32,000 nucleotides of DNA from Pyrobaculum calidifontis JCM 11548 (GCF_000015805.1 NC_009073.1:1350001-1382000); one strand, 5' to 3'. Positions 1-14,797 are shown, counted from the stretch's first letter. Notes: a model not told the origin generated them from the letters alone. Program-made: numbers and translations.

Positions 1-15
1 CCACTTGGGCCTGTG

Positions 16-35
16 CTTAAAAAGATTTATTCCAC
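16..35 (-). promoter_or_regulatory. GGAATAA-box plus TATA promoter pointing left, out of the window
   Basis: Minus strand reads GTGGAATAAATCTTTTTAAG. The driven gene would start left of position 1. Confidence 0.4.
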
Positions 36-58
36 TAATCTCGGAAAGACTTCCTCCA

Positions 59-77
59 GTGGAATAAGGTATATATA
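59..77 (+). promoter_or_regulatory. GGAATAA-box plus TATA promoter of the DsrE-like gene
   Basis: GTGGAATAAGGTATATATA. TATA is centred ~24 nt upstream of the ATG at 97. Confidence 0.5.
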
Positions 78-96
78 CATGCCCCAAGTCGCCCAC

Positions 97-447
97 ATGC
101 CGGATAAAGTGGCCTTCTTAGCCACAATGCCGCCTGCAGATGGGCCTAGAATTTCTACAATGCTCGGCTACGCCTTGGCAGCCGCCTCTATGGGATTCGA
201 GGTGTTGATTTTCTACACCTTGGACGCAGCCCACATAGTAAAAAAGAAAGTCTTTGAAAAACTAGACCCGCAGATTAGGGAGAGGTTTAAGCAGTGCATG
301 GACATGGGGTGTAAGATGTGGCTGTGCTCCTCGGCCGCGGCCACCTTCAACATAAAAGAGGACGAGGTAGTGGAGGGAGTCAAGATAATGGGCATAGCGA
401 GCTTCTACGAATACGCGGCTGAGGCCAAGGTTGTGCTCACTTGGTGA
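97..447 (+). CDS. DsrE/DsrF-like sulfur-relay family protein
   Basis: ORF-track 13..447 trimmed to the ATG at 97. The TATA tatatata at 70-77 is centred ~24 nt upstream, so the mRNA is leaderless. KVAFLATMPP...GFEVLIFYTLDA...WLCSSAA resembles the DsrE-like (COG2210-type) fold with a conserved Cys. Confidence 0.7.
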   Translation: MPDKVAFLATMPPADGPRISTMLGYALAAASMGFEVLIFYTLDAAHIVKKKVFEKLDPQIRERFKQCMDMGCKMWLCSSAAATFNIKEDEVVEGVKIMGIASFYEYAAEAKVVLTW

Positions 448-928
448 CCTCCACGGCGTCTACGTATCCAAACTTGTTTTTTAACTCTGCCAAGTACTCC
501 TCCGCCCTTTCTCTAATTAGCAAGGCCGCGATCTGGGCCCAGTTGAAGAAGCCCCACTCGAGGGGGACTGTGAACTTCACTGAGAGGAACCCGTAGAGGC
601 CGGACTCGTCGCATTTCACTGGGAATAGAGACATGGCGTAGTTGAGCCTGTACCCAGGCCAGGGGAGGTCCTCCACCTCGCCCAGGAGAGTGGTCTCCCC
701 CTCCGCGTCGGCGCAACCAGCGGTGGTAAAGACGCGTATGTTCAAGTCTATGAAGCCCATCTTGTACCTACTCCCGTCGAGGACCACCAAGGCGTAGAGG
801 TTGACGTCTCGGACCCAGAGGTGTAACTTTTCCGAGGGGTCTTGAAAGACGAGGACTTGGGGAAACTCCCGGAGGTAGACGGGGCGGGAAAAAGACCTTA
901 TCTTTTTTTCAAACTCCTCAAATTCCAT
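437..928 (-). CDS. Uncharacterised ~163-aa protein translationally coupled to dsrB copy 1 (orfX1)
   Basis: ORF-track 437..985 trimmed to the ATG at 928 (MEFEEFEKK...), which overlaps the dsrB1 stop by 11 nt. Divergent homolog of 7822..8322, sharing LFP(V/I)K...Y...KF and Y(L/F)xELK(N/K) blocks at matching positions. Confidence 0.6.
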   Translation of the reverse strand: MEFEEFEKKIRSFSRPVYLREFPQVLVFQDPSEKLHLWVRDVNLYALVVLDGSRYKMGFIDLNIRVFTTAGCADAEGETTLLGEVEDLPWPGYRLNYAMSLFPVKCDESGLYGFLSVKFTVPLEWGFFNWAQIAALLIRERAEEYLAELKNKFGYVDAVEVTK

Positions 929-2075
929 CTCTGAGCCGCGGGTAGACGTCGCCGCGGGATCTGTAGGTGAGGAACGTCCTGGCAAACTCAGGCACTCTCT
1001 GGTAGTAGTCTCTAACCTTGCCGAAGCCCAGCAGATCGAGGAACTTAGTCCACCCCACTCTCTCGATGAAGTCGGCGAGTCTCTCGCCGGGCTGGGCGTG
1101 CTGCCTCCACGTCTCTACTATGTGCTTTACCACGGCCACTATCTCCTCATACCTCGGCGGATTTGCGGGCAACCACGGTATCAACACCCGGCCCAGCCTG
1201 GGGCCAGTGCCAGTGTTAGACATCTTGCCGCCCACGAGTATTGACACGCCCACGTTTTCTGGGTCGTAGTCAAAGGCGTCGCAGTTCTCCTTACACCTGG
1301 CGCAGTTGATGCACTTTTCCCCAATTAGGACGAGCTTTACCTTGTCCCCCTCCCTCCTCAGAGAAAGGGCGCCGGTGGGGCAGACTTGGACTAGGAATAT
1401 CTGCGACTCCGGCAACTTGGCCAAGGCCTTAGGCGGCGGGAGACACATGGGGAGGACCTCCTCGCGTATCTTCGGCGGGGCGCCCCACTGGCCCACTATT
1501 GCTATATCTATAGCTGTGCCGCCAGCGCACATGGCCGGGCAACCGCTGACGAAGACCCTGAGCTTTGCGGGAAGCGGAATCTCGCCAGTGAAGTAGGGCT
1601 TCAGCGCATCGCCGAGGGCCTTGCTAATACTTGGGCTATCCACCACCGCGGTGGTGCACGTCAGATATGCAGTACAGCTGTTGATTCCCCACAAGGCGCC
1701 GCCCCAGCCTCCCACTGGGAAGCCCAGCTTCTCCACCTCCTCCTTGATCTTAAGCGCCTTCTCCAGAGAGTCTGTCAGAAACTCTATGTTGCCTGCCATG
1801 GTCACCCTCAGCGCGCCTATGCCCAACTTGTCCGCAATATCGGCAAATTTGTCCAACGTATCCGCCGAAAGCCTCGCGTTAGGCGGCAACGCGACTTTCA
1901 CAGTGAATATCCTCTCCCCAGTGGCAGAGACGTGCTCAATTATACCATTGCCATGGAACTTCCTATCCACCCACTTTCCATAGTTCCTGAGTATGGCCTC
2001 GGGCAGAAACTTCTCTAAGTCGACGGGGAAGACCTTCTGCAACCTCTCAGCCTTAGACGGGGCGGCGGCGGTCAT
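918..2075 (-). CDS. dsrB: Dissimilatory sulfite reductase-type protein, beta subunit (copy 1)
   Basis: Siroheme/[4Fe-4S] motifs CTAYLTC (Cx5C) and SGCPAMC (Cx3C). Ferredoxin insert CPTGA...CINCARCKENC. 4-nt overlap with dsrA1. Confidence 0.85.
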   Translation of the reverse strand: MTAAAPSKAERLQKVFPVDLEKFLPEAILRNYGKWVDRKFHGNGIIEHVSATGERIFTVKVALPPNARLSADTLDKFADIADKLGIGALRVTMAGNIEFLTDSLEKALKIKEEVEKLGFPVGGWGGALWGINSCTAYLTCTTAVVDSPSISKALGDALKPYFTGEIPLPAKLRVFVSGCPAMCAGGTAIDIAIVGQWGAPPKIREEVLPMCLPPPKALAKLPESQIFLVQVCPTGALSLRREGDKVKLVLIGEKCINCARCKENCDAFDYDPENVGVSILVGGKMSNTGTGPRLGRVLIPWLPANPPRYEEIVAVVKHIVETWRQHAQPGERLADFIERVGWTKFLDLLGFGKVRDYYQRVPEFARTFLTYRSRGDVYPRLRDGI

Positions 2076-3316
2076 ACCCCCACCTTGCCCTTGAGCTCTT
2101 CCACCAGCTTTAGGTACATGTCTCTCTCCTCCTTGGGCAACACTGCGTAGGGCACGTCGTCCGGCGTCTTGGCAATGGACTCGGGCATGCCCTCAAGCTT
2201 AATCCCAGCCTTCTCAATGAACTTGTCCAGCCCAGTCACCAAAATGTAGTCGCCGAGCCTGTACTTGGGCTGAGCCTCGGCCTCCCAGGGGGCAATGACC
2301 TTGAAGGTGAGGTCTATGGCCTCCTTCACCTGGTCCGGCCTTAGGTAGCCGATGAACCAGCCTAGCTTAGGCCCATACCTCCCCTTAACTCCGCCCCCAA
2401 TTACTACAGCGACTTTCCTATTCTTGCCTGGCTTTATGGCTGGGAAGGCTGTGCGGATGCAGTGCATAGACTTTTTGCACTTGCTCCCATCAATCACGAG
2501 CTCTTTCTTCTCGGCGTCCCACCTAATGGCGCCGCTGGGGCAGTTAGCGGCAAGCTTCACCGGGTCCACAACCCCCCTCTCCACAAGCTCCCTAAACTTA
2601 GCCTGATCCACCTCAGGAGCACCCTCCCACACGCCAATGAAGCCTATGTCTGCCCTGTTGGCGCGGGCGCAGTCCAGAGGACAGCCAGATATTTTGATCT
2701 TGAACTTGTAGGGGTAGTTGGGCGTCGCTATGTTGTCGTTGACGCGTTTGTCTTTGTGAAACTCCGCGTACCACTTCAAGGTGTCGAAGAGGGCGAATTC
2801 GCATAGGGCGGGCCCGACGCAGGCGTTGAGGGCTCTTATGGCGTCTCCGCTGCCGCCTACGTCTGTGCCTATGGACCTAAGGGCGTCCACCATCTCCTCT
2901 GCCTTGTCGGGCGTTAGGTTGAGGACAAAGGCGCCGGTCTGCCCCACCACCTCTATAAGTCCCACTCCCAGCTCTCTGGAGATCTTTGTAATCTTTCTTA
3001 TGAAGTCGGTCTTCCAGAACTTGCCTGGGGTGTGGAAGACTCTGAAGTGCACCTCTACGCCGCCGCCTGGAACCCAGTCTCTGGCCCACCGGGATAATAC
3101 CCCCGTGTTTACATAGGCCACCTTGACGGCGCCGGGGCCCCAGGGGGACTTCCTAGCCGCGAGGCCCACGCCGTAGACTCTGAGCGGGTACTGGGTCTTC
3201 CTCAGCTCCGCCACGTGGCTCGGCCAAGGCCCCTTCTCAAGCTCTTTCAATATCTCCTCGGCCCTCTGTAGAAGCTGGTCGGGCGGCGGTAGGTTGGGCG
3301 GTGCTGACATGAGCAT
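2072..3316 (-). CDS. dsrA: Dissimilatory sulfite reductase-type protein, alpha subunit (copy 1)
   Basis: Motifs CVGPALC (Cx5C) and SGCPLDC (Cx3C), plus ferredoxin-like insert CPSGAIRW...CKKSMHC. The second ATG at 3310 fits the TATA spacing better. Confidence 0.85.
   Translation of the reverse strand: MLMSAPPNLPPPDQLLQRAEEILKELEKGPWPSHVAELRKTQYPLRVYGVGLAARKSPWGPGAVKVAYVNTGVLSRWARDWVPGGGVEVHFRVFHTPGKFWKTDFIRKITKISRELGVGLIEVVGQTGAFVLNLTPDKAEEMVDALRSIGTDVGGSGDAIRALNACVGPALCEFALFDTLKWYAEFHKDKRVNDNIATPNYPYKFKIKISGCPLDCARANRADIGFIGVWEGAPEVDQAKFRELVERGVVDPVKLAANCPSGAIRWDAEKKELVIDGSKCKKSMHCIRTAFPAIKPGKNRKVAVVIGGGVKGRYGPKLGWFIGYLRPDQVKEAIDLTFKVIAPWEAEAQPKYRLGDYILVTGLDKFIEKAGIKLEGMPESIAKTPDDVPYAVLPKEERDMYLKLVEELKGKVGV
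2424..2629. repeat. Near-identical 206-nt tract shared with 9771..9976 (dsrA ferredoxin-like insert)
   Basis: By-eye alignment shows about 5 mismatches in 206 nt, all synonymous. Flanking dsrA sequence is much more diverged. Confidence 0.8.
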
Positions 3317-3330
3317 ATCTACGTGCCCCC

Positions 3331-3350
3331 TTTTAAGCCCTATTCCTAAC
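3331..3350 (-). promoter_or_regulatory. GGAATA-box plus TATA promoter of dsrA copy 1
   Basis: Minus strand reads GTTAGGAATAGGGCTTAAAA, 18-24 nt upstream of the ATGs at 3316/3310. Confidence 0.5.
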
Positions 3351-3368
3351 CAACGTGTAACAACTGTT

Positions 3369-3842
3369 TTACACAGATGTACATACGACGCGCAGAGAGG
3401 CTTTTACCCTCTCTGCCACTGGCGAGAGGGCGGCCGCCAGCTCTCCGTCTATTAGCCCGCGTTTGACCAGGTATATGTACAAAAGCTCAACGTCGTTAAG
3501 CGGCATATCGGGCCTGTAGAGCTTAGCCACCTTCTCAACAAGCGCGAGGGCGCGCGGCCCGTCTAGGCCCCACTTCGAGGCCAGCTTATCCACTAAGTAC
3601 CGCCGGGGCCCCTCCCTCTGGATGAGGGCTATGATGCCCATGGGAGTGGCTTTGTAGACCCTCTGCCCCCTAGACGCCGCGGCTGAGGCCAAGAAGCCTC
3701 GCCTTTCGAGTTCCACCACCTTCTTGTAGGTGTAGGAGAAGAAGAGGCGGTTATCGACGGCTATCCTATAAGCTGTCACGGGCTCGCGCATGGCGACATA
3801 AGACAAGATTAGGTACTCCCTCTCGTCGAGTTTATCAAACAT
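3369..3842 (-). CDS. Winged-helix (wHTH) transcriptional regulator, archaeal type
   Basis: N-terminal YLILSYVAMREPVTAYRIAVDNRLFFSYTYKKVVELERRGFL looks like HTH plus wing. Paralog of 4167..4877. Its own promoter carries the GGAATAA box. Confidence 0.55.
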   Translation of the reverse strand: MFDKLDEREYLILSYVAMREPVTAYRIAVDNRLFFSYTYKKVVELERRGFLASAAASRGQRVYKATPMGIIALIQREGPRRYLVDKLASKWGLDGPRALALVEKVAKLYRPDMPLNDVELLYIYLVKRGLIDGELAAALSPVAERVKASLRVVCTSV

Positions 3843-3860
3843 GGAGGTAGGGAGGCAACA

Positions 3861-3880
3861 CTAATTATCTCTTATTCCGC
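3861..3880 (-). promoter_or_regulatory. GGAATAA-box plus TATA promoter of wHTH regulator 3369..3842
   Basis: Minus strand reads GCGGAATAAGAGATAATTAG. TATA is ~23 nt upstream of the ATG at 3842. Confidence 0.5.
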
Positions 3881-3946
3881 CGACGCGGCGGAAGTATTTC
3901 CCCCACCCTTGTAATAACGTTTATAACTATCCAACGGGGTAGGGCC

Positions 3947-4192
3947 ATGTTGACCTACGACGATGTGGTGTCCAAGTTCTGCCTCTGCGACATAGAGATA
4001 TACCTAAAAGTGAAAGACGGCGTGGTGGTCGCTCCCGCCCAGTACGCGGGGAAAAGGGCAGAGGAGGTCCTTAAGGCGGCGAAGGGCGTTGTAGTGAAGA
4101 CGGAGCAAGGCGGATACCTCCACTACTTCGTAATACGTAGGTCTGCCTACCTCAGGAAGACCGCAGTCAAGCCTGCCGCGGCCCTAGCCTAA
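3947..4192 (+). CDS. Small hypothetical protein (81 aa)
   Basis: ATG at 3947 lies 23 nt downstream of TATA tttataac (3920-3927). No recognisable domain. Confidence 0.4.
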   Translation: MLTYDDVVSKFCLCDIEIYLKVKDGVVVAPAQYAGKRAEEVLKAAKGVVVKTEQGGYLHYFVIRRSAYLRKTAVKPAAALA

Positions 4193-4877
4193 TTCTCCCA
4201 ACTATTTTTTCCATCAGCGTGGGGCAGGGGTCTAGGCTACAGTACTTGTCCCGCCCGCACATCTTACAATGGGCAGCGAAGAGCTTGTACCCACCGTCCT
4301 CTTTAAATAACACCGCCGTATACTCCTCATCTCTCACTATAAGCGCTTCGTCAAATATCTTCCTCACCAACGATATAACCGCATAGGCGGCCACTCTGCT
4401 GGCCAACACCGCGTCCCCCCTCTCCATCTGGGAAAAACACTTCTCAAGCCTATTCCCACACCTCGTGGCCAAGTAGGCTCCCACCAGCTCCAGCCCCTCG
4501 AGGGGGGCATCCCCTGCGGCCACCCTCCCGTAGAACTTCAGAAAGGCCTCCACCTCCTCGTCTGAGAAGGACTCCAGCCTAAGCCTCCGCTTGATCTTGG
4601 CCAAGATGAGGGACTTAGGCGCAGTGCCGTAGATCAGCGGGATTAAGAGCCCCCTCACCGTGGCGTAGTACACTGTGGATCTCCCAGCCGACGCGGGCTC
4701 GAGGAGGCGCTGCGCTACGAGCTTATTCACCTTTCTATACACATGAGAGAAGTGCATGTTGAGCCCCCGCGCCACTCTGTACATAGTAACAGGCTCGTTT
4801 ACGGCCACAAAGGACACCATGGCCCTAGCGGTTTCGTCGACCTTTACCCCAACAAGACTAGAAAGTTCGACCAACAT
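4167..4877 (-). CDS. wHTH transcriptional regulator with Cys-rich C-terminal domain
   Basis: N-terminal VAVNEPVTMYRVARGLNMHFSHVYRKVNKLVAQRLL is paralogous to 3369..3842. The C-terminal domain has Cx6C and CKMCGRDKYCSLDPC (Cx2C-x5-C-x4-C). Confidence 0.55.
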   Translation of the reverse strand: MLVELSSLVGVKVDETARAMVSFVAVNEPVTMYRVARGLNMHFSHVYRKVNKLVAQRLLEPASAGRSTVYYATVRGLLIPLIYGTAPKSLILAKIKRRLRLESFSDEEVEAFLKFYGRVAAGDAPLEGLELVGAYLATRCGNRLEKCFSQMERGDAVLASRVAAYAVISLVRKIFDEALIVRDEEYTAVLFKEDGGYKLFAAHCKMCGRDKYCSLDPCPTLMEKIVGRIRLGPRQA

Positions 4878-4959
4878 TAGTAATATGATAGCCGAGGTTA
4901 ATAAACGTTTCTAACAATAATGATCTATCACACAATTTTTTACAAACATACACGTGAAT

Positions 4960-5415
4960 CTATCCGGGCGCATGGTGTAAAAGCTTGTACATCTCCATAT
5001 ACCTCCTCTCGAGGATGTACGCTACTTTCCTAAACTTCTCCACGTCTATGTCGGTGACGCAGACGCAACCCACCTGCCCGCCGCTGGCCTCCACCATGAC
5101 CACTCTCCCCTCGGCCACTCCCAGGAGGATGGCCGACTCCTCGCCTCCATACAGCTCGACGTAGGGGGGCTCCACCGAGACGGGAGAGGCCTTAGACACG
5201 CAGTCGGGGTAGGCTGTGGCCTTGATGGCCTCCACTAGCTCCCCGTCTTCCAAGCACCGGGGCTCCCCCTCCCCCTCGAAGACGAGGAGGTCCCCCTTGA
5301 CCCAGAGCCCGTCCCAGAGGGCCATGTCGTAGCCGCTGGGCTTGCAGGGGCGGCCCCTGGCGCTTATCCATTTGGCCAACAGCTGGAAAAAGTCGGGTAT
5401 TGATACAACGCTCAC
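4960..5415 (-). CDS. Hypothetical Cys-containing protein (151 aa) downstream of tusA
   Basis: GTG start 8 nt after the tusA stop. No recognisable domain. Six Cys residues. Confidence 0.45.
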   Translation of the reverse strand: MSVVSIPDFFQLLAKWISARGRPCKPSGYDMALWDGLWVKGDLLVFEGEGEPRCLEDGELVEAIKATAYPDCVSKASPVSVEPPYVELYGGEESAILLGVAEGRVVMVEASGGQVGCVCVTDIDVEKFRKVAYILERRYMEMYKLLHHAPG

Positions 5416-5422
5416 ACGCCGC

Positions 5423-5650
5423 TTACTTGAGCCTGCGAACTACAATGCGTAGGTACCCCTCGGCGGTTTTCTCAGAGGAGACCACCTCGTGCCCCATGCG
5501 CTTGGCCCACGCCCTTATGTCTGGATCCGCCGCGGGGTCGGTGGCGAGGACCTCCAAGACGTCGCCCACGGGCACCTCGTTTATGGCCTTGGCAGTCTCC
5601 ATAACGGGGATAGGGCAGAACTTCCCCCTCACGTCCAACGTCTTGGGCAT
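5423..5650 (-). CDS. tusA: TusA/SirA-like sulfurtransferase
   Basis: ORF-track 5423..5737 trimmed to the ATG at 5650 (MPKTLDVRGKFCPIPV). Classic LDxRGxxCPxP motif. TATA is 24 nt upstream. Confidence 0.8.
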   Translation of the reverse strand: MPKTLDVRGKFCPIPVMETAKAINEVPVGDVLEVLATDPAADPDIRAWAKRMGHEVVSSEKTAEGYLRIVVRRLK

Positions 5651-5669
5651 AAGGTAAGGGGAGGCTACG

Positions 5670-5688
5670 TTTAAAAGCCTTATTCCAC
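5670..5688 (-). promoter_or_regulatory. GGAATAA-box plus TATA promoter of tusA 5423..5650
   Basis: Minus strand reads GTGGAATAAGGCTTTTAAA. TATA is ~24 nt upstream of the ATG. Confidence 0.55.
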
Positions 5689-5697
5689 AGCCCCTGG

Positions 5698-6126
5698 CTA
5701 CTTCTCGCTTACCTGTTTTAGGTTCTCCTCCATGCAACTGCCCATGGCCTTTAGCAGAGTCACCATGAGGCCCATGGCCTTCTGCACCTCTGGGTCACGC
5801 ATGGCGGAGAGGAGGCCGAAGAGCCCCACACGCGGCGCCCCGTCCTCGGCCACCTGTCTCAACGCCTTGCTGGCGCAGACCACGCCTCCCTGCATGGCGG
5901 CGCCCAAGGCGTTCAAGTCAGCCGAGTCCATTATGGACAACATGGAGATGAGCGGCGCCGCCACTTTGAACACCTGTATGTCCGCCATTAGGTGGGGCAA
6001 CTTCTCCAGCACGATCTTTACTGGGAGGAGGAGGGAGCTCAACTCCTCCACCTCCCTGCGCAGGGCCTGCACCTCCTGCAGAAGTCTCTCGTAGTCGGCC
6101 TTGGGTATTGTGACTACCTCGCTCAT
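5698..6126 (-). CDS. DUF1641-like protein (partner of SQR/NDH-II-type flavoproteins)
   Basis: C-terminal GLFGLLSAMRDPEVQKAMGLMVTLLKAMG resembles the DUF1641 signature. 4-nt overlap with the upstream flavoprotein gene. Confidence 0.6.
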   Translation of the reverse strand: MSEVVTIPKADYERLLQEVQALRREVEELSSLLLPVKIVLEKLPHLMADIQVFKVAAPLISMLSIMDSADLNALGAAMQGGVVCASKALRQVAEDGAPRVGLFGLLSAMRDPEVQKAMGLMVTLLKAMGSCMEENLKQVSEK

Positions 6127-7283
6127 GGCACTACCCCCAGAAGCCAGTTGAAGTACACTTTCTCAAACATCTCCTTGAACAATCGCGTCGCAGGTGCTGG
6201 CGGAAGGAACATGCAGTCGGGGTACGGCTTCTGCTTTTTCACAAACGGCGTGAAGTCGCAGGCAGCGGCCATTCCAAAGGCCCCCACGTCTAAGGCGCAT
6301 GTGCCAACAATTCTAAACGGGGGCTTCCCGAGGTATACGCCGAATAGGTCGGCGGCTATGTTGCTTATAACCCAGGGCATGTAGCTGTGTAGAATTGTCC
6401 CAGCCATCCCCACTGGGACGTTGGGAGCGGCAACGTCGCCTATTACGTATACGTCGTCGTATTTTGCGCTTCTAAAGTCGCCGTTGGCGGGGTTGCGAGG
6501 CGCCGCCCACCCATTTTTAGCCAAGTCACTGTTGAGCACGGGGTCCGGCGCCTTGTGCGGCGGGACAATAAAGGCCGCGTCGAACTTAAACTTCTCCCCG
6601 GTGGTGGTTTCCAGCTCGCTCTTGCCCAAGCTCTTGATTGCCGTGGACTGCCCCACGCCGACGTATTCAATCCCCAGCTGCTGTAGGAAGCCGGACATCC
6701 ACTTGGCCGCCATTGGGCCAAAGTTCTCAAAGGGCCTCTTGAGCGGGTGCACCACAGTTATCTTGACCTTGTCTCTCAGTCCCCGGGTTAGGTAGTAGAA
6801 GTGGGTAAGCATTGCCAGCTCGATGGGGGCTGGCGGACAGCGGTAGGGCAGAGAGTAAACGCCGATGACGATGTGCCCCTGCTTCACCTGGGCGAGGGCC
6901 TCGGCAACCTTGAGAGAAGGCTCTAGCTCCCACGTGTGGGGGAACCCAGTCTCTACGGTCTCTGCGCCGAGGGCCACCACCAACACGTCGTAGGTAAACT
7001 CCCCGGCCGTCGTCTTCACCTTCCTATTGGCCGCGTCTATGGCTGTCACCTTGGCCTTCACAAAATTTACCCCGTGGCGTTTTACGTGCTCAAGAGGGAC
7101 AGAGACTTCCTCCGGCCTCCTGTAGCCAAAAGCCACGTAGAGGTACGAAGGCCTAAAGTCCGTCCTATCCTTGGCGTCTATGAGCGTTATTTCCACATCC
7201 CCCGGCCCAAACCTCTCCCTAAGCTCCTTCACAGTCATTAAGCCGCCAGTTCCACCGCCCAGAACCAACACCTTTTTGGGCAT
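6123..7283 (-). CDS. sqr: Sulfide:quinone oxidoreductase-type FAD flavoprotein
   Basis: KVLVLGGGTGG Rossmann motif. Conserved-Cys contexts PYRCPPAPIE and GTCALDVG, plus VYVIGD. Start moved to the ATG at 7283 (TATA 24 nt upstream). Confidence 0.75.
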   Translation of the reverse strand: MPKKVLVLGGGTGGLMTVKELRERFGPGDVEITLIDAKDRTDFRPSYLYVAFGYRRPEEVSVPLEHVKRHGVNFVKAKVTAIDAANRKVKTTAGEFTYDVLVVALGAETVETGFPHTWELEPSLKVAEALAQVKQGHIVIGVYSLPYRCPPAPIELAMLTHFYYLTRGLRDKVKITVVHPLKRPFENFGPMAAKWMSGFLQQLGIEYVGVGQSTAIKSLGKSELETTTGEKFKFDAAFIVPPHKAPDPVLNSDLAKNGWAAPRNPANGDFRSAKYDDVYVIGDVAAPNVPVGMAGTILHSYMPWVISNIAADLFGVYLGKPPFRIVGTCALDVGAFGMAAACDFTPFVKKQKPYPDCMFLPPAPATRLFKEMFEKVYFNWLLGVVP

Positions 7284-7302
7284 AGACTTCACTTTCCAAA
7301 AA

Positions 7303-7320
7303 GTATTAAAGCATTATTTC
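7303..7320 (-). promoter_or_regulatory. Degenerate (GAAATAA) box plus TATA promoter of sqr
   Basis: Minus strand reads GAAATAATGCTTTAATAC. TATA is ~24 nt upstream of the ATG at 7283. Confidence 0.4.
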
Positions 7321-7369
7321 TCTCGTGTGGTAATAAAAATGTGAAAAATTGCCGGCGTTGTGGGAAGGA

Positions 7370-7792
7370 TTATATAAACAGAGTGACGGAGGCGTCCTTT
7401 GCCCTCTCGAGGAAGGTGGCGGCGCCCACCACCTCGTCCACGAAATCGGCGAGTTGCGCCTTGTCTTTTATGCCAAACATCTCCATGGTGGTAGAGCACG
7501 CGTAGACGCGTACGTTGCCCATGGACTTGGCTTGTCTTATAAGCTCGTGCCACGGCGGGAAGTTCATCTGCTTAACCGCCTGAGCCACCGCGGGGGCATA
7601 CTCTGCGAAGTCGGCCGAGATCTTCATCTGGGACAAGTTCTCCTTCCTAATGGCGTTTAGCCCCCAGAAGGTGAAAAAGAGCTCCACGTCCCAGCCCCCA
7701 GCGGCGGCCGCGCTCGAAAGAATGGCCACGGGGTACAGCTTGTCCACAGTGCCGCTCCACACGATTATTGCAAGCTTGTTTTTCTTTTCCAT
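7370..7792 (-). CDS. dsrE: DsrE3-type DsrE/DsrF-like sulfur carrier protein
   Basis: KLAIIVWSGTVDKLYPVAIL...VELFFTFWGLNAIRK...VYACSTTMEMFGI is typical of COG2210/DsrE3-like proteins with the active Cys. Confidence 0.75.
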   Translation of the reverse strand: MEKKNKLAIIVWSGTVDKLYPVAILSSAAAAGGWDVELFFTFWGLNAIRKENLSQMKISADFAEYAPAVAQAVKQMNFPPWHELIRQAKSMGNVRVYACSTTMEMFGIKDKAQLADFVDEVVGAATFLERAKDASVTLFI

Positions 7793-7810
7793 GCGAAAAA
7801 CTCTCTCTCT

Positions 7811-7830
7811 ATTAATAAGAGTTATTCCAC
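7811..7830 (-). promoter_or_regulatory. GGAATAA-box plus TATA promoter of dsrE 7370..7792
   Basis: Minus strand reads GTGGAATAACTCTTATTAAT and overlaps the stop codon of orfX2. TATA is ~23 nt upstream of the ATG. Confidence 0.55.
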
Positions 7831-8322
7831 GCCCTCAGTGGAAGTACTTGTCAACGCCTTTTTAAGCTCTAGGAAATACGCGTCGCTGTCTAGCTCGAAC
7901 TGGTCTATCAAGTCCTCAATGTTTCCAGCAGTTAAGTTTTCCACAAAGGTCTTAAACCCCATCGCGGCGTAGACCACCTCCCCCTCCTGTTTTATTGGGA
8001 AGAGGAAGGGCGCCGGGTTGCCGAACTTCTCCACAGAGAACCTAGTCGTGGCGTCCTCCAGCTCCTCCACGTTGGAGACGCCCTCAAGGCGCCTCACGTC
8101 GTCCAGGTTCAAGAAGGCCAAGGCGTAGCCCTCCTCAGTCTTCAAGGCAGTGACAAGGTAGGGCCTGGGCCTACCCGGGAGGGAGAGGATGTAGGTGGCC
8201 TCGGCCCCCTCCTCCAGCTTCGCCAGCTCGTGGACCAAGTCCTCTACCTCCCCCAGCTCCTCAACTCCGTGGTTAAACCTAAGCCTTAGTAAAAAGTCCC
8301 CAATTATGTCGTAGATGCTCAC
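7822..8322 (-). CDS. Uncharacterised ~166-aa protein translationally coupled to dsrB copy 2 (orfX2)
   Basis: 4-nt overlap with the dsrB2 stop. Divergent homolog of 437..928. Confidence 0.6.
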   Translation of the reverse strand: MSIYDIIGDFLLRLRFNHGVEELGEVEDLVHELAKLEEGAEATYILSLPGRPRPYLVTALKTEEGYALAFLNLDDVRRLEGVSNVEELEDATTRFSVEKFGNPAPFLFPIKQEGEVVYAAMGFKTFVENLTAGNIEDLIDQFELDSDAYFLELKKALTSTSTEGVE

Positions 8323-9419
8323 GCCAAGAACTGCCTTATGCCGAACTCGCCCTCAAATTTCACGGGCTTATTCCACTTGGTGACTGGGATGTTCAACATC
8401 TCGTAGAACTTCTCCATGCCAATTCTGTGCACCCAGTCGCCCAGCCTCTCCCCCTCCCTGGCGTTCTGCCTCCACACGTCGATTATCTTCTTCACCACGG
8501 CCACGATTTCCCTATACGCGGGCGGGATGGCTGGCACCCAGGGTATTACCTGCACCGAGGGGAGCGGGCCTCTGCCTGTGTTGCTCGCCTTGCCGCCTAT
8601 GAGCACGGCCACTCCGGCCTTGCTCTGGTCGAAGTCAATCCAGTCACAGACGTCGCGGCAGCGGCCGCAGGCGATGCACTTGGACCTAATTATGTCGAGG
8701 CCCACAGAGCCGTCGGGTTTTCCATACACCTTTATGGCGTTGGTGGGGCACACCTCGGCCACCTCTGGCACGTGGCCGGCCTCCAGGGCCTTGGCGGACT
8801 TGGGGAGGCAGAGTTTTATCCTCTCGGGGTCGTAGGTGGGGGCGTCTCCGTAGTGGCCCACCAGGTTTATGTCCGCTGTGAACCCGCCGCAACTGCTGGG
8901 GCAACCAGAGACGTTTATCCTAAGCTTCGCCGGGAGAGTTATCTCGCCTGTGAAGTAGGGCTTAAGCGCGTCGTAGAGAACCTTGGTAATGCTGGGCGCG
9001 TCCACCACCGCTGTGGTGCACGTCAGAAAGGCAGTACAGCTGTTTATAGACCATATGGTGGGGCCCCAGCCTCCCACTGGGAAGCCCAGCTTCTCCACGG
9101 CCTCCTTGATCTTAAGCGCGTTCTCTAGAGAGTCTGCCATGAACTCCACGTTTCCGTTTCTGGTAATCCTCAGCGCCCCGATGCCGTAGGTGTCAGCGAT
9201 TTCGACAAACTTCTTGAGAGTGTCGACGCTGACCCGGAAGTTGGGCGGCGTGCCCACCTTCACTGTGAATATCCTCTCCCCAGTGGCAGAGACGTGCTCA
9301 ATTATGCCGTAGCCGTGGAACTTCCTATCCACCCACTTGCCCAAATTCCGCTTCAGCGCCTCCGGCAGCCAGTCGGTGTAGGGTACTGGGAGCCTCTTCT
9401 TAAACCTCTCAGCGCTCAT
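8319..9419 (-). CDS. dsrB: Dissimilatory sulfite reductase-type protein, beta subunit (copy 2)
   Basis: CTAFLTC and SGCPSSC motifs. Ferredoxin insert CPTNA...CIACGRCRDVC. 4-nt overlap with dsrA2. Confidence 0.85.
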   Translation of the reverse strand: MSAERFKKRLPVPYTDWLPEALKRNLGKWVDRKFHGYGIIEHVSATGERIFTVKVGTPPNFRVSVDTLKKFVEIADTYGIGALRITRNGNVEFMADSLENALKIKEAVEKLGFPVGGWGPTIWSINSCTAFLTCTTAVVDAPSITKVLYDALKPYFTGEITLPAKLRINVSGCPSSCGGFTADINLVGHYGDAPTYDPERIKLCLPKSAKALEAGHVPEVAEVCPTNAIKVYGKPDGSVGLDIIRSKCIACGRCRDVCDWIDFDQSKAGVAVLIGGKASNTGRGPLPSVQVIPWVPAIPPAYREIVAVVKKIIDVWRQNAREGERLGDWVHRIGMEKFYEMLNIPVTKWNKPVKFEGEFGIRQFLA

Positions 9420-10654
9420 AGCTTGTACTCAGCCACTATCTTGTTGACCCAGTCTAGCCACATCTTCCTCTCCTCGTCGTCGAGCACCGCGCCCGCCCTA
9501 AGCGACGGGTGTAAGGTGGGCTTGCCCTGCGGCTTCACCTTCACCACCTCCTCGAGGTAGCGCTTGAAGCCTACCTTCATGATGAAGTCCCCAATCCTGT
9601 CCTTGTGCTTAACCATGCCCTTCTCCATGCCCTCCATCCAAGCCTCGACAGTCTTCACCACCCAGTCCGCGGCCTCCTTGTAGTCGTTGACTATGGCCAA
9701 GGGCTTGGACATCTTTCCGCCAAATCTGCCCTTGACGTGGCCGCCCACGAGCACCGCAATCTTCCTGTTTTTGCCTGGCTTTATGGCTGGGAAGGCTGTG
9801 CGGATGCAGTGCATAGACTTTTTGCACTTGCTCCCGTCTATCACGAGCTCTTTCTTCTCGGCGTCCCACCTAATGGCGCCGCTGGGACAATTGGCGGCAA
9901 GCTTCACCGGGTCCACAACCCCCCTCTCCACAAGCTCCCTAAACTTAGCCTGATCCACCTCAGGAGCACCCTCCCAGATGCCTATAAAGCCGAAGTCGGC
10001 GCGGTGCACTGCCCTAGTGCAGTCGAATGGGCATCCCGAGAACTTGGCCTTGAATTTGAAGGGGAACAGCTGGTTGCTCATCCACTCGTATATCTTGGGG
10101 TGGGTTAAGAAGTAGTCCCGCGCCGCGAGGGTGTCGTATAGGGCGAACTCGCAGAGGGCGGGCCCGACGCACGTGGCCAGCTCTCTGATGGTGTCGCCGG
10201 TGGCCCCCACGTCTGTTCCAATGGCCCTCAAGGCGTCGATGGCCTCATCCGCCTTCTCCGGCTGGATGGAGATAATCATCATCCCCTGTTGGCCGGCCAG
10301 CTCCACGAGGCCTAGGCCGTACTTTTCAATGAACTCGATCAGCTGGCGGAGCTTCTGCGTGGTGTATATCTGGCCCGAGGGCTGCCATACTCTGAAGTGG
10401 AGCTCCGCGTATTTTCCATCCCTGGTCCTCCTGGCGATGAAGCCAGTGTAGACGAACCGTATCTTGGCGGAGCCAGCGGCCCACATGGTCTTCCTAGCCG
10501 CCAGCCCCGCCCCGTAGGCGTCTATGGGGTAGTTGGTCTTCTTGAGCTCCGCCACGTGGCTCGGCCAAGGCCCCTTCTCGTAGTACTCAAGGATGCGGCG
10601 CCCCTCTTCTGCATATGCGTCAACAGTTAGGGGCTTTTTCTCAACAGTTTCCAT
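9416..10654 (-). CDS. dsrA: Dissimilatory sulfite reductase-type protein, alpha subunit (copy 2)
   Basis: CVGPALC and SGCPFDC motifs. The ferredoxin-like insert is identical to copy 1 over ~70 aa. TATA is 22 nt upstream of the ATG. Confidence 0.85.
   Translation of the reverse strand: METVEKKPLTVDAYAEEGRRILEYYEKGPWPSHVAELKKTNYPIDAYGAGLAARKTMWAAGSAKIRFVYTGFIARRTRDGKYAELHFRVWQPSGQIYTTQKLRQLIEFIEKYGLGLVELAGQQGMMIISIQPEKADEAIDALRAIGTDVGATGDTIRELATCVGPALCEFALYDTLAARDYFLTHPKIYEWMSNQLFPFKFKAKFSGCPFDCTRAVHRADFGFIGIWEGAPEVDQAKFRELVERGVVDPVKLAANCPSGAIRWDAEKKELVIDGSKCKKSMHCIRTAFPAIKPGKNRKIAVLVGGHVKGRFGGKMSKPLAIVNDYKEAADWVVKTVEAWMEGMEKGMVKHKDRIGDFIMKVGFKRYLEEVVKVKPQGKPTLHPSLRAGAVLDDEERKMWLDWVNKIVAEYKL
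9771..9976. repeat. Partner of the 2424..2629 near-identical tract
   Basis: Same as above. The antisense ORFs 2352..2606 and 9687..9953 give identical peptide strings across it. Confidence 0.8.
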
Positions 10655-10736: not shown

Positions 10737-11546
10737 ATGCCCACTGTGGTAATAACCTCGGGGAGGGCACACAAGGCGGACCTCCTGGCCAAGATGTTGA
10801 CCAGGGCAGGCATAGAGCCTGTCTACCTCCCCGTGGTAAAGATAGGAGAGGCCGGGGGTGCGGACGTGGCGAAGTTCATCGACGAGATATCCCACTTCGA
10901 CGTCTTCATATTCATGACTGGGCAGTCGGTTGCAAGCTTAGTGCAAGAGGCTAAGAGGGCTGGGCTAGAGCAGAGGCTTAGGGAGGCCCTCTCCAGGATG
11001 ACTATTCTGTGTAGGGGCAGCAAGGCCGCTGGCAACGTGAAATCTCTCCTAGGCCTCACCTGCGCCGTGGTGGAGGAGACCTCGGAGGAGCTGTTGAAGG
11101 TTGCTGAGAGAACGCTTGAGGGGAAGAGGGTGGCCATATCGTTCTACGGGTACCTAGACGACGAGTTTCTGCGGGAGGTGCAGAAGAGGGCCGCAGAGGT
11201 GAAGTACATACAGACCTACAGGACAGAGCTTGAGGAAAATGCGGCAGAGATAGCGAAGCTGGTCTTGGCGGGGGAGGCAGACGTGGTGGTCTTCACAAGC
11301 GCTCTGGCCTGCAACAGCTTTTTCACACAGCTCAGCGCCCTAGGCCTAGCCGAAAAAGTGGCCAACCGGTTTAGGTCGGGCGCCGTTAAGCTGGCGGCGG
11401 TGGGGCCAGTCACGGCAGAAGAGTGCAAAAAATTTGGCGTAGAGCCGCACATTGTGCCAGAAAAGCCCTTCTTGGCGTATCTCGGCGAGGCCATCATAAG
11501 GCACTTAAAACCAACGCTGAACACCGACAGCGTGAGGACACAATAG
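10737..11546 (+). CDS. hemD: Uroporphyrinogen-III synthase (HemD-like)
   Basis: Two-lobed pattern VVITSGR...FDVFIFMTGQSV and ADVVVFTSALACNSF...LAAVGPVTA is typical of HemD. TATA aataaata is 22 nt upstream. Confidence 0.6.
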   Translation: MPTVVITSGRAHKADLLAKMLTRAGIEPVYLPVVKIGEAGGADVAKFIDEISHFDVFIFMTGQSVASLVQEAKRAGLEQRLREALSRMTILCRGSKAAGNVKSLLGLTCAVVEETSEELLKVAERTLEGKRVAISFYGYLDDEFLREVQKRAAEVKYIQTYRTELEENAAEIAKLVLAGEADVVVFTSALACNSFFTQLSALGLAEKVANRFRSGAVKLAAVGPVTAEECKKFGVEPHIVPEKPFLAYLGEAIIRHLKPTLNTDSVRTQ

Positions 11547-11553
11547 CGGCCTC

Positions 11554-12948
11554 TCAGCCTGCGCAACAGGAGAGTTTTGTCACATCTTTGTAGAAGGCCA
11601 GCGCGGCTAGTCTGGCGGCTTCGCCGAAGGTGGGAAACGCGGGTATCATATCAGCAATGTCGTCCACCGTTAGGCCGTGGGCCACCGCCATGGCGAAGAT
11701 GTGTATCAGCTCCTCTGCCTGCGGCGCGGCGGCCACCGCGCCGGCTATTTTCCCGCCGCGCATGGAGATGCGCCACGTCTGGGGGTAGGTGTTTATCTTT
11801 ATGAAGCCGTCCAGGCGCCCGGAGGCCCACGCGGCGGCCACCGCGGATACGGGGGCCAGCCGGCAGACGCAACCCACTCCGCTTTTCAACATGTCCTCCT
11901 CCCTCATCCCCACGGAGGCCACGGGTGGGTCTGTGAAGACGACGCGGGGGACGTGCAGTGGGTTAAACCTGGCGTCGCCCCCTAGCGCGTTTATGGCCGC
12001 CACCACGCCCTGCCTCGCCGCGGCGTTTTCTAGATATCTCCCGCCGGGCAGTCCCCCCGTGACGTCCCCCGCCGCATATACTCCGGGGAGGCTGGTCTCC
12101 ATCCTCTCGTTCACCTTCACCGAGCCCTCCGGGTTCAGCTCCACGAGCCCCCCGGCTGCCTCTGAGTTCGGCCTTCTCCCAGCGGCGATGAAGAGAGCCT
12201 CTCCCCTCGCCCTAGACCCCTCCCGCCCCACCACCTCCACGCCGCCGTCCACGCGCCGCACTGCCACAGCCTCGTCGTGTATCACCTCGACCCCCTCCTC
12301 CCTCAGCACCTCCTCCACGAAGTGGGACGCCACCTCCTCCTCGTACTTCAACAGTCTGCCCCTCGTGAATATGGCGGTCTTAACCCCCAGCCTGTTGAGG
12401 GCTTGGGCCAGCTCCACGGACACGGCGCCGCCGCCTATGAACACCACGCTGGAGGGCTCCCCAAGCTCAAACAAGCTCTCGTTGGTGTAGTACCTCACCT
12501 CCTCCAGCCCCTTTATCGCCGGGACGGCGGGCCTGGCCCCCGTGGCTATCAACACCCGCCTGGCCTCTATCGTCCTATCCCCCACCTTTACCGCGTTGGC
12601 AGAGGCGAGAACGCCGAAGCCCTCAACGTAGTCTATGCCGTAGTACTCCAGGAGGTCTATGTACTTCTCCTGCCTAAGCCTCTCCACCACGCCGGCGGCG
12701 CCCCTCAAGAGGTCCCCAAGGCGGACCTCCACCGTTGCCTTGACGCCGGGGTAGTACCCCATCTTCGCCCTGTGGACAACCTCAGCCGCCTTGGCCAAGT
12801 ACTTGGTGGGGACACACCCCACGTTGACACAGGTCCCCCCGGGGGGCAGGCCGGCGTTAACCATGACCACCTTGGCGCCCAGCTCAGCCGCCTTTATAGC
12901 CGCGGCAAAGCCCGCGGAGCCTCCCCCCAAGACGCAGAGGTCGTACAC
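11554..12948 (-). CDS. merA: Mercuric reductase-type class I pyridine nucleotide-disulfide oxidoreductase (core MerA, no NmerA domain)
   Basis: GGGSAG FAD motif. Redox centre GGTCVNVGCVPTK. C-terminal KLSCCAG vicinal Cys pair characteristic of MerA. Confidence 0.7.
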   Translation of the reverse strand: MYDLCVLGGGSAGFAAAIKAAELGAKVVMVNAGLPPGGTCVNVGCVPTKYLAKAAEVVHRAKMGYYPGVKATVEVRLGDLLRGAAGVVERLRQEKYIDLLEYYGIDYVEGFGVLASANAVKVGDRTIEARRVLIATGARPAVPAIKGLEEVRYYTNESLFELGEPSSVVFIGGGAVSVELAQALNRLGVKTAIFTRGRLLKYEEEVASHFVEEVLREEGVEVIHDEAVAVRRVDGGVEVVGREGSRARGEALFIAAGRRPNSEAAGGLVELNPEGSVKVNERMETSLPGVYAAGDVTGGLPGGRYLENAAARQGVVAAINALGGDARFNPLHVPRVVFTDPPVASVGMREEDMLKSGVGCVCRLAPVSAVAAAWASGRLDGFIKINTYPQTWRISMRGGKIAGAVAAAPQAEELIHIFAMAVAHGLTVDDIADMIPAFPTFGEAARLAALAFYKDVTKLSCCAG

Positions 12949-12951
12949 GCC

Positions 12952-13329: not shown

Positions 13330-13341
13330 GGGGGCAGAAGT

Positions 13342-14049: not shown

Positions 14050-14168
14050 GGCGTAACTGCGATATTACGAGAAAAAGCTATCGCGCCCAACGGCGTCCAG
14101 CCAACGCCGCGGCCGTGCAGGCTCGGCCAACCCCAGCCACGGCAGTAGAGCGCCGGGTGAGCGTTGGG

Positions 14169-14774: not shown

Positions 14775-14784
14775 CTATATAAAC
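14775..14784. promoter_or_regulatory. Shared TATA element (ctatataaac) between divergent RHH-like gene and PaREP1 gene
   Basis: Only 23 nt separate the two annotated starts. This single A/T-rich box is the only candidate TATA for both. Confidence 0.35.
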
Positions 14785-14797
14785 TTTACAGATACAC

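Follow-up and report, generated by a model that had tools for sequence, protein, structure and literature searches.

The stretch analysed here (the window, 32,000 nt), from the genome of Pyrobaculum calidifontis, an aerobic archaeon of hot springs, carries two sets of genes for sulfite reductase-type enzymes, which raises the question of why both are kept and with which partners they would work. The two dsrA-dsrB-orfX modules share one orientation and lie, as originally predicted, at 437–3316 (copy 1, dsrA1-dsrB1-orfX1) and 7822–10654 (copy 2, dsrA2-dsrB2-orfX2), with a start-to-start spacing of 7347 nt. All six ORFs are intact and on the minus strand. A comparison of DsrA across 29 genomes of the family gave three score classes, named class I (P. 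islandicum-type), class II (copy 1) and class III (copy 2). The genes of the two modules are:

437–928, minus strand: orfX1, 163 aa, ATG at 928, overlapping the dsrB1 end by 11 nt
918–2075, minus strand: dsrB1, class II DsrB, 385 aa, ATGA overlap with dsrA1; TIGR02066, 456.8 bits
2072–3316, minus strand: dsrA1, class II DsrA, 414 aa; TIGR02064, 434.5 bits, above cut-off
7822–8322, minus strand: orfX2, 166 aa, GTG start, GTGA overlap with dsrB2
8319–9419, minus strand: dsrB2, class III DsrB, 366 aa, ATGA overlap with dsrA2; TIGR02066, 359.5 bits
9416–10654, minus strand: dsrA2, class III DsrA, 412 aa; TIGR02064, 330.7 bits, below cut-off

The overlapping gene junctions are as first described at 2072–2075 and 9416–9419 (both ATGA) and at 918–928 (11 nt), but the one at 8319–8322, reported as ATGA, is GTGA because the start codon of orfX2 is GTG. 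Both DsrB proteins exceed the NCBIfam equivalog cut-off (341.5 bits for TIGR02066, dsrB). DsrA2 scores below the corresponding value for dsrA (392.85 bits for TIGR02064), and its match is full-length (positions 2–393 of 402). DsrA1 and DsrA2 share 53% identity, DsrB1 and DsrB2 60%, and the genome encodes no NIR_SIR-domain proteins other than these four subunits.

The cysteine pairs Cx5C...Cx3C are present in all four subunits (CVGPALC/CPLDC, CVGPALC/CPFDC, CTAYLTC/CPAMC and CTAFLTC/CPSSC), and the siroheme-[4Fe-4S] cysteines of the DsrA subunits fall in the invariant columns C166, C172, C212 and C216. Their occurrence in both A and B, which had been pointed out at first, is the norm for DsrAB and no peculiarity of this locus. 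DsrA1 also retains the catalytic Arg/Lys residues when compared with Archaeoglobus fulgidus DsrA (3mm5_A): R92, R161, K204 and K206 align to the segments FHTMR, GSDLR and YKFKIK, which, in the numbering we assume, hold the sulfite-binding residues of that enzyme. This Arg/Arg/Lys/Lys set is invariant across classes I–III, including DsrA2, where motifs and catalytic residues are likewise intact. The ferredoxin insert of DsrA is different. Both copies read CKKSMHC, with Ser replacing the middle Cys of the CX2CX2C found in A. fulgidus (CVRCMHC), D. gigas (CTRCMHC) and the P. islandicum-type class I (CKKCMYC), while DsrB1 and DsrB2 keep the full CX2CX2CX3C ferredoxin motif. The change is compatible with membership of the DsrAB family, since the DsrA of the Vulcanisaeta type also lacks the middle Cys (CLKAMNC). 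Each module looks to encode a complete, catalytically competent alpha/beta siroheme sulfite reductase.

Classes II and III are found together in at least nine Pyrobaculum/Thermoproteus genomes, and class III is present in 11 of the 13 genomes with class II, the two exceptions being MAGs (80% and 93% complete); these counts span related genomes and are not independent. The distance between the two classes is 1–12 kb in all eight complete genomes or single contigs where it could be judged, P. calidifontis included. The aprA gene occurs in every class II/III genome, within about 10 kb in eight of them, and is absent from the three genomes having class I only. Class I is absent from P. calidifontis and from one further genome (G001). 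In another (G002) the dsrA of class II is disrupted and those of classes I and III remain intact, which suggests that class II overlaps functionally with class I and not with class III. DsrA1 is 80–82% identical to its orthologues (dN/dS 0.05–0.09) and DsrA2 77–79% (dN/dS 0.10–0.18); dN/dS is 0.07–0.11 for DsrB1 and about 0.05–0.18 over all four subunits, values that point to strong purifying selection on both copies.

Phylogenetic placement put both copies in a Thermoproteales archaeal clade and showed that they are not recent in-paralogues; the DsrAB tree was built without oxidative-type references, and the nearest relatives of both copies are all of the archaeal reductive type. Copy 1 groups with the P. 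islandicum type and copy 2 with the Vulcanisaeta-type enzyme. In the DsrB tree, class III (dsrB2) and the Vulcanisaeta-type sequences are grouped with support values of 99/98, and monophyly of classes I, II and III received a p-AU of 0.03, for a group that was named after a quick tree had been seen. Trees from concatenated sequences are distorted by mosaic dsrA genes. The duplication is ancient, preceding the split of Pyrobaculum and Thermoproteus. It is probably also older than the split from Vulcanisaeta, an age that is only moderately supported because the Thermoproteales DsrAB clade is rooted on a very long branch (1.8–2.3 substitutions per site) and because of the late choice of the AU group.

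One near-identical segment is present once in each dsrA copy:

2421–2629, minus strand: gene-conversion tract in dsrA1, ferredoxin-insert codons (about aa 230–298)
9768–9976, minus strand: partner tract in dsrA2, a direct repeat of 2421–2629

Over these 209 nt the two genes differ at six positions (97% identical), and third-codon-position identity is 80–100% within the tract versus 25–67% elsewhere. Homogenisation of the DsrA ferredoxin insert is seen in seven of eight genomes, with recurrent gene conversion holding the inserts of the two copies identical. A common redox or docking partner may be the reason. In P. calidifontis the tracts are direct and not inverted repeats.

The original prediction noted that dsrC, dsrMK, apr and sat were missing and that the companions of the modules were instead DsrE, TusA, SQR and YeeE. 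This is literally true inside the 32 kb, and does not hold for the genome, where DsrC, DsrN, DsrK, DsrM, AprBA and Sat are all encoded just outside the window. Within it lie two genes each for TusA, for DsrE-family proteins and for SQR/FCSD-type flavoproteins, together with one YeeE-type transporter. Features flanking or separating the modules are:

13–447, plus strand: DsrE-family gene (PF02635, E 3e-22), convergent with orfX1 and divergent from dsrC outside the window
3369–7792, minus strand: inter-module spacer with two genes lacking a Pfam match, then orf151, tusA, DUF1641, an SQR-type flavoprotein and a DsrE-family gene
10737–14049: two hemD-like genes (PF02602; 10737–11546, plus strand, and 13342–14049, minus strand) with a disulfide-reductase-type flavoprotein between them

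A search of the whole genome found dsrC and dsrMK beside the window. The only full-scoring DsrC (G000:1349664–1349966) lies 35 nt ahead of the window's first base, and its C-terminus (...GACKVAGAPKPTGCV) has both C-terminal cysteines, spaced Cx10C. The genes dsrN, dsrK, dsrM, aprBA and sat all lie within 18 kb. The DsrK-like protein (CCG domain plus Fe-S) and DsrM-like protein (NarI family) are adjacent as well, and a third SQR-type gene sits between dsrK and dsrM. Sat matches PF01747 (218.7 bits), AprA matches TIGR02061 above its cut-off (719.3 bits) and AprB matches PF12139, giving a complete sulfate-reduction gene set in the genome (Sat, AprBA, DsrABC and DsrMK). The genome gave no match to DsrD (PF08679) at E<=1, and orfX occupies its position. 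DsrH (PF04077) had none at E<=0.1, and the DsrE-family genes occur only singly; a DsrEFH complex is therefore lacking. The order dsrC-dsrE1-orfX1-dsrB1-dsrA1 is kept in relatives, as is the adjacency of hemD1/hemD2 to the class III dsrA, and the hemD-like genes next to dsrA2 would fit a supply of siroheme. Upstream of both dsrA genes there is a GGAATA-type box beside a TATA-like element, which hints at co-regulation rather than at different growth modes.

The proteins orfX1 and orfX2 have no BLASTP similarity to each other (E 0.12). Their family profiles are nevertheless collinear (hhalign 75.6%, E 2.4e-5), and their AF2 models (pLDDT 93.4 and 91.5) have a largely similar order of helices and strands, so that the two can be regarded, at the level of profiles, as remote homologues. 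The predicted alpha/beta fold had no PDB match at E<=0.001, and orfX1 had no match in Pfam and matched only 15 clusters among 1.84 billion representative proteins. Homologues of orfX1 in relatives lie after class II and also class I dsrB, and orfX2 is kept after class III dsrB in six relatives. The position directly after dsrB, with translational coupling, recalls the DsrD of bacterial sulfate reducers, which is half as long and is said to be an allosteric activator of DsrAB. Given this placement, a DsrAB-binding accessory role for orfX is a reasonable guess.

Taken together, these results make it rather likely that the twin class II/III dsrAB-orfX modules specify isoenzymes of the sulfite/DsrC-trisulfide step in one APS-linked pathway, probably a non-respiratory one in this organism. 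Copies 1 and 2 would be the class II and class III members of a twin arrangement conserved in Pyrobaculum and Thermoproteus, each providing one siroheme sulfite reductase and a small lineage-specific accessory protein (orfX). A single DsrC, the DsrMK membrane module and DsrN would serve both enzymes, within one supercluster that also comprises AprBA, Sat, the siroheme-synthesis genes and the sulfur carriers (DsrE, TusA, SQR-type flavoprotein and YeeE). It is the location of these partners in one supercluster that argues for isoenzymes of one pathway over stand-alone enzymes independent of DsrC. The view that both copies are complete, are not recent in-paralogues and are retained together across the family was borne out, and strong purifying selection with near-constant joint retention makes non-redundant roles plausible. 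None of S0, thiosulfate, sulfate and sulfite supports respiration in P. calidifontis (PMC1974809), which leaves room for an oxidative or assimilatory role, and its standard aerobic medium contains 0.3% thiosulfate (PMC9245690). As the P. islandicum-type class I is missing as well, we lean towards a non-respiratory function, either thiosulfate/sulfide oxidation or detoxification, or sulfur assimilation. The AprBA of Pyrobaculum may be non-functional (Meyer and Kuever, PMC2211403), in which case the claim of a complete pathway would be weakened.

A possible, though distinctly less probable, explanation is that class II/III DsrAB run in reverse in aerobic or nitrate-respiring Pyrobaculum, converting thiosulfate or sulfide to sulfate. 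Sulfane sulfur, taken from thiosulfate by YeeE/TusA uptake or from sulfide by the SQR-type flavoproteins, would pass from TusA to DsrE to DsrC, and DsrAB would oxidise it to sulfite; conversion to sulfate by AprBA and Sat would follow, and DsrMK would deliver electrons to the quinone pool. Each isoenzyme might be suited to its own direction, opposite to that of the other, or to its own sulfur donor, and their common docking surface might be the homogenised ferredoxin insert. The carrier, flavoprotein and transporter genes of the window, the SQR-type gene between dsrK and dsrM, and the missing DsrD all agree with this, as does the purifying selection, which implies that the genes are in use. 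P. aerophilum reportedly uses thiosulfate as an electron donor. P. calidifontis, for its part, respires none of the four sulfur compounds yet is grown aerobically with thiosulfate, and like G001 has no class I enzyme. Against an oxidative direction stand the lack of DsrH, and hence of DsrEFH, and the position of both copies in the archaeal reductive-type clade beside the DsrAB of Vulcanisaeta, a genus reportedly capable of sulfate reduction (PMC7174415). Since a DsrE-like gene is also found in the Vulcanisaeta dsr locus, DsrE is no marker of oxidation. The twin locus occurs, moreover, in G002 and G025, taken as the anaerobes P. arsenaticum and Thermoproteus tenax, and growth of the latter on sulfate has been reported (PMC3189178). 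Archaeal Dsr pathways have so far been solely reductive according to a review (PMC10591310). If it were true, an oxidative Dsr pathway would be on record for archaea for the first time, made of reductive-type enzymes without DsrEFH.

It is unlikely that the modules are simply interchangeable and do the same job as a matter of redundancy or dosage. They have DsrC, DsrMK and DsrN in common, as well as identical active-site residues, an identical DsrA ferredoxin insert and similar promoter boxes, all of which favour such a relation. However, the subunits are only 53–60% identical after a split at least as old as the Pyrobaculum/Thermoproteus pair, each copy has its own diverged orfX, and both are retained in 11 of the 13 class II genomes. 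The broken class II dsrA of G002, beside intact class I and class III genes, also speaks against it.

The idea of sulfite reductases without DsrC, DsrMK, Apr or Sat, each acting directly on TusA- or DsrE-bound persulfide or trisulfide and one copy per substrate, was suggested by the sulfur-carrier genes between and around the modules; the gene context largely refutes it, and it is now very improbable. It presupposes a lack of dsrC and dsrMK, true only within the window, whereas 35 nt beyond it there is a canonical DsrC that has both redox cysteines, in a conserved gene order (dsrC-dsrE-orfX1-dsrB1-dsrA1), DsrK, DsrM and DsrN are adjacent, and both DsrA copies keep the sulfite-binding Arg/Lys residues. 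A pseudogene among the two copies, or an assembly artefact behind the pair, could be imagined from the sub-threshold score of DsrA2 and the near-identical 209-nt tract, but was ruled out with near certainty by open frames with intact motifs, dN/dS of 0.05–0.18, the presence of the pair in many independent assemblies and strong divergence, third-position identity of only 25–67% outside the tract (synonymous sites near saturation) excluding an assembly duplication.

Multiple DsrAB copies in these genera are already known. In the portions drawn on here, Blank (Archaea 2012:843539, PMC3512248) describes, for most Pyrobaculum/Thermoproteus genomes, linked DsrA-DsrB copies numbering as many as three, one of the three being missing in only a subset, ascribes them to ancestral duplications followed by losses, and regards a linkage of DsrAB with SseA and SQR as possible for P. 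calidifontis. The three copies are monophyletic in that account, whereas the DsrB tree here places class III with the Vulcanisaeta type (p-AU 0.03 against monophyly), and the same portions make no mention of class II–III linkage, aprA co-distribution, the orfX genes or gene conversion. The dissimilatory siroheme sulfite reductase-type protein of P. islandicum (Molitor et al. 1998, as cited in PMC10504309) corresponds to class I. It falls into the archaeal reductive-type clade as well, is 68–72% (A) and 75–76% (B) identical to copy 1 and, like copy 1, has an orfX1-like gene after its dsrB. Class I differs in its DsrA insert, which is a full CX2CX2C (G004, G005 and G025) and not CX2SX2C as in both P. 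calidifontis copies, and in its locus, which is equipped with a separate dsrC, dsrM and dsrK and shows no linkage to apr or sat. The Vulcanisaeta-type DsrAB, which the DsrB tree shows as the closest outgroup of copy 2, shares with it the lack of the middle Cys and comes from a locus holding dsrM, dsrK, a DsrE-like gene and dsrC. It is present as one copy per genome (PMC3512248), is followed by an unrelated 223-aa ORF in place of orfX, and has no more than about 51% (A) and 62% (B) identity to copy 2. Duplicates held partly identical by recombination within one genome are familiar from tufA/tufB-type genes, but here homogenisation is limited to the DsrA ferredoxin insert and the rest of each gene is about 50% identical. 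Two diverged dsrAB sets are likewise found in a cultivated bacterium, Moorella thermoacetica (PMC10504309), which, like P. calidifontis, reduces neither sulfate nor sulfite. Its copies are found in separate parts of the genome and fall into two distinct major clades (bacterial reductive and basal), unlike those of P. calidifontis, which are both of archaeal type, lie 7 kb apart, have one DsrC between them and exchange sequence.

Pyrobaculum calidifontis carries two intact, conserved and linked DsrAB isoenzymes that share one DsrC, DsrMK and DsrN, together with a full Sat-Apr-Dsr gene set. The genome is a single contig of 2,009,313 bp, of which the window takes in positions 1,350,001-1,382,000, and the two modules, each with the order dsrA-dsrB-orfX, are made up as follows.

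dsrA1: nt 2072-3316, minus strand, DsrA by Pfam and NCBIfam
dsrB1: nt 918-2075, minus strand, DsrB by Pfam and NCBIfam
orfX1: nt 437-928, minus strand, small gene directly after dsrB1
dsrA2: nt 9416-10654, minus strand, DsrA by Pfam and NCBIfam
dsrB2: nt 8319-9419, minus strand, DsrB by Pfam and NCBIfam
orfX2: nt 7822-8322, minus strand, small gene directly after dsrB2

The copies share 53% (DsrA1/DsrA2) and 60% (DsrB1/DsrB2) identity, and DsrA2, at 330.7 bits, falls below the dsrA equivalog cut-off of 392.85. The overlapping gene junctions of the original prediction were confirmed, except that the dsrB2/orfX2 junction (nt 8319-8322) reads GTGA rather than ATGA, a GTG start codon overlapping the TGA stop. 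The Cx5C...Cx3C motifs that it reported are indeed present in all four subunits; their occurrence in both A and B is the ordinary DsrAB state and no peculiarity. Alignment with Archaeoglobus fulgidus DsrA shows that DsrA1 and DsrA2 both keep the basic residues of its sulfite-binding segments. A search of the whole genome returned no NIR_SIR-domain proteins besides the four Dsr subunits, so a siroheme-type assimilatory sulfite or nitrite reductase distinct from these is absent from the organism.

Within the window no dsrC had been visible, but the flanking DNA shows that the modules are not enzymes without DsrC. A dsrC gene stops just 35 nt short of where the window begins, and its product has both redox cysteines with Cx10C spacing. 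Farther upstream, within 18 kb, are genes for a DsrN of the cobyrinic-acid-diamide-synthase type, a tetrapyrrole methylase, DsrK-like and DsrM-like proteins and an SQR-type flavoprotein with a DUF1641 gene, as well as aprB, aprA (719 bits, above cut-off) and sat. The window itself also encodes two DsrE-family genes, two TusA genes, two SQR/FCSD-type flavoproteins, a YeeE-type transporter, two hemD-like genes and hemA. Given these neighbours, both modules are parts of a single large Sat-Apr-Dsr supercluster that brings its own siroheme supply. Only one full-scoring DsrC was found in the genome, and genome-wide searches found neither DsrD nor DsrH.

When 29 genomes of the family were searched with TIGR02064, the dsrA model, three score classes emerged: class I (about 500-570 bits), the P. 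islandicum type, which is absent from P. calidifontis; class II (about 370-445 bits), which includes copy 1; and class III (about 315-350 bits), which includes copy 2. Class I alone occurs in G004 and G005 (presumably P. islandicum and P. neutrophilum), classes II and III alone in P. calidifontis and G001 (which we take to be P. aerophilum), and all three in G002, G006 and G025 (P. oguniense in the case of G006; G002 and G025 are assumed to be P. arsenaticum and Thermoproteus tenax). Class III accompanies class II in 11 of 13 genomes, the two exceptions being metagenome-assembled genomes that are 80% and 93% complete, and the two classes lie 1-12 kb apart in all eight complete genomes or single contigs that could be judged, P. 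calidifontis included. An aprA gene is present in every class II/III genome, within about 10 kb of the pair in eight, and is missing from all three class-I-only genomes. The conserved order in relatives is dsrC, dsrE, orfX1-dsrB1-dsrA1, methylase, dsrN, dsrK, SQR, DUF1641, hemD, dsrA2-dsrB2-orfX2, tusA, dsrM. Among eight genomes, the modules lie on the same strand only in P. calidifontis, and on opposite strands in G001, G002, G003, G006, G012, G017 and G025. Pcal_1456/1457 and PAE2597/2596 are reported orthologues that lack a counterpart in P. islandicum (PMC3388794).

The relationship between the classes was assessed with a DsrB tree rooted on bacterial sequences. DsrB alone was used, and G001 and G017, two genomes with obvious mosaics, were left out, because their mosaic dsrA genes bridge classes II and III and distort a concatenated DsrA+DsrB tree, which was dropped for inference. 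Both copies belong to the Thermoproteales clade: copy 1 sits with classes I and II, and copy 2 is in class III, which groups with Vulcanisaeta-type sequences (99/98 support). Forcing all Pyrobaculum and Thermoproteus copies into one clade cost 11.9 log-likelihood units (p-AU 0.03), figures to be read, like the tree, with the very long stem of the clade in mind and with the tested group having been named after a quick tree was seen. The divergence of classes II and III is thus likely, though not certain, to be older than the Vulcanisaeta split.

Against this background of divergence, one stretch of the two dsrA genes is nearly identical. Between nt 2421-2629 and nt 9768-9976 there are only 6 differences in 209 positions, and third-codon-position identity reaches 80-100% inside the tract vs 25-67% elsewhere in dsrA. 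What the tract encodes is the DsrA ferredoxin insert. Of eight genomes that have both class II and class III, seven show 96-100% identity in this insert between their own two paralogues, while it varies from genome to genome, a pattern of concerted evolution through recurrent conversion. The identical region of G001 is longer, starting at the insert, taking in the rest of dsrA and extending over the first half of dsrB, and in G017 (probably also G013) the dsrA halves have been swapped between modules. In the chimeric genes (L016, the G017 locus, nt 6301-8648 and 12458-14658; L027, the G013 locus, nt 3992-5197), the join lies at the ferredoxin insert: the N-terminal half comes from one class, the C-terminal half and the dsrB from the other. 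A dsrB patch in P. calidifontis (nt 1700-1820 and 9060-9180; DsrB1 residues 101-140) also has raised third-codon-position identity, 80-85%, and probably reflects conversion that was older or covered a shorter stretch. Since the dsrA tracts are direct repeats in this species, a crossover between them would delete the 7.3-kb spacer and not invert it. The spacer carries tusA, an SQR-type gene, a DsrE-family gene and two putative regulator genes.

Compared with orthologues in three other genomes, dN/dS (with dS near saturation) was 0.05-0.09 for dsrA1, 0.07-0.11 for dsrB1, 0.10-0.18 for dsrA2, 0.08-0.11 for dsrB2 and 0.18-0.44 for orfX1 and orfX2. Neither copy is in decay, and an assembly duplication or a pseudogene is ruled out by these ratios and by the third-codon-position divergence outside the tract. 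Some relatives do carry damaged genes. In G002 an apparent frameshift breaks the class II dsrA (locus L008, nt 13830-14929) into ORFs of 116 and 271 aa, with classes I and III intact in that genome. In G001, an in-frame TAG in aprA (G001:C1:1529072-1530910) and a truncated orfX1 homologue of 88 aa (locus L007, nt 2344-2610) suggest that the pathway has partly decayed in this strain. About 20 kb from its class I locus, G006 has a fourth dsrA/dsrB/dsrC set (G006:C1:819740-821552) that is degenerate and interrupted by in-frame stops.

The products of orfX1 and orfX2 (163 and 166 aa) match no Pfam or NCBIfam family. Homologues of orfX1 follow class II and class I dsrB, and those of orfX2 follow class III dsrB. 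The two family profiles align collinearly (hhalign, 75.6% probability, E 2.4e-5), and the AlphaFold models (pLDDT 93.4 for orfX1, 91.5 for orfX2) have largely the same order of helices and strands; homology of the families is taken from these two results. The ancestral unit was thus probably dsrA-dsrB-orfX. A profile search with orfX1 among 1.84 billion representatives found only 15 clusters and did not recover the orfX2 family. Foldseek comparison of both models with the PDB gave no match at E<=0.001, with TM-scores of at most about 0.4; weak matches to BirA, Arp2/3 p34, T3SS chaperones, YbjN, adenovirus knob and PR-10 were inconsistent between the models, and no fold was assigned. The orfX proteins represent a confidently predicted new fold tied to dsrB and are candidate DsrAB accessory factors; judged by position, they may be analogous to DsrD. 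Vulcanisaeta sp. JCM 14467 has no orfX after its dsrB, the position being taken by an unrelated, nameless ORF of 223 aa (locus L033, nt 6437-7108).

Both dsrA genes have a GGAATA-type box beside a TATA-like element, a shared arrangement that hints at co-regulation. Exact copies of GTGGAATAA occur within the 3' end of dsrB2 (nt 8368-8376), some 46 nt ahead of where orfX2 starts, and across the orfX2 stop codon (nt 7822-7830), just upstream of a DsrE-family gene. These are possible internal promoters, the window holding 12 matches at <=1 mismatch vs 4.0 expected by chance.

Because the split is old and the copies are retained together, we infer that their roles are non-redundant. P. aerophilum has been described as able to use thiosulfate as an electron donor. 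For the DsrAB of P. calidifontis, an oxidative, detoxifying or assimilatory role is an attractive possibility. The host uses O2 or nitrate as electron acceptor, and not S0, thiosulfate, sulfate or sulfite (Galperin 2007, PMC1974809), is routinely grown in air with 0.3% thiosulfate (PMC9245690), lacks the class I enzyme and possesses SQR, TusA, DsrE and YeeE genes. However, DsrEFH is lacking, the phylogeny is of the reductive type, AprBA functionality has been doubted (PMC2211403), and anaerobes share the locus, among them T. tenax, for which growth on sulfate is reported (PMC3189178). The puzzle is that strong purifying selection maintains a full Sat-Apr-Dsr set, with two sulfite reductases, in an aerobe for which no sulfur compound can serve in respiration. 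Archaeal Dsr pathways are currently regarded as only reductive, a view that would be put to the test by resolving the direction of the two enzymes and how they share the work.

DsrAB is the standard marker by which dissimilatory sulfur metabolism is traced and dated. Pyrobaculum and Thermoproteus lie near the base of its tree with up to three paralogues that exchange segments, which can distort trees built from single or concatenated copies, as happened here. In the ferredoxin insert, both P. calidifontis DsrA proteins contain CKKSMHC (CX2SX2C; nt 2459-2479 and 9806-9826, DsrA1 C280-C286 and the DsrA2 equivalent), the middle residue being Ser, in contrast to Cys in A. fulgidus, D. gigas and the P. 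islandicum-type class I and Ala in Vulcanisaeta-type DsrA. The absence of this Cys makes the Fe-S content of the insert uncertain, and a filter demanding CX2CX2C in DsrA (the method of PMC12948486) would discard both copies. Multiple DsrAB copies in Pyrobaculum and Thermoproteus, and their link to sulfur genes in P. calidifontis, were described in Blank 2012 (PMC3512248), and the Pyrobaculum paralogues were passed over by later reviews. What appears to be new to the literature is that classes II and III are linked with apr and sat, that the ferredoxin insert has been homogenised separately in each genome, that the insert carries CX2SX2C, that there are two orfX families and that class III has its affinity with Vulcanisaeta-type sequences. 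On the last point the results differ from the tree in Blank 2012, where the three copies are drawn as monophyletic, whereas here class III joins the Vulcanisaeta type.
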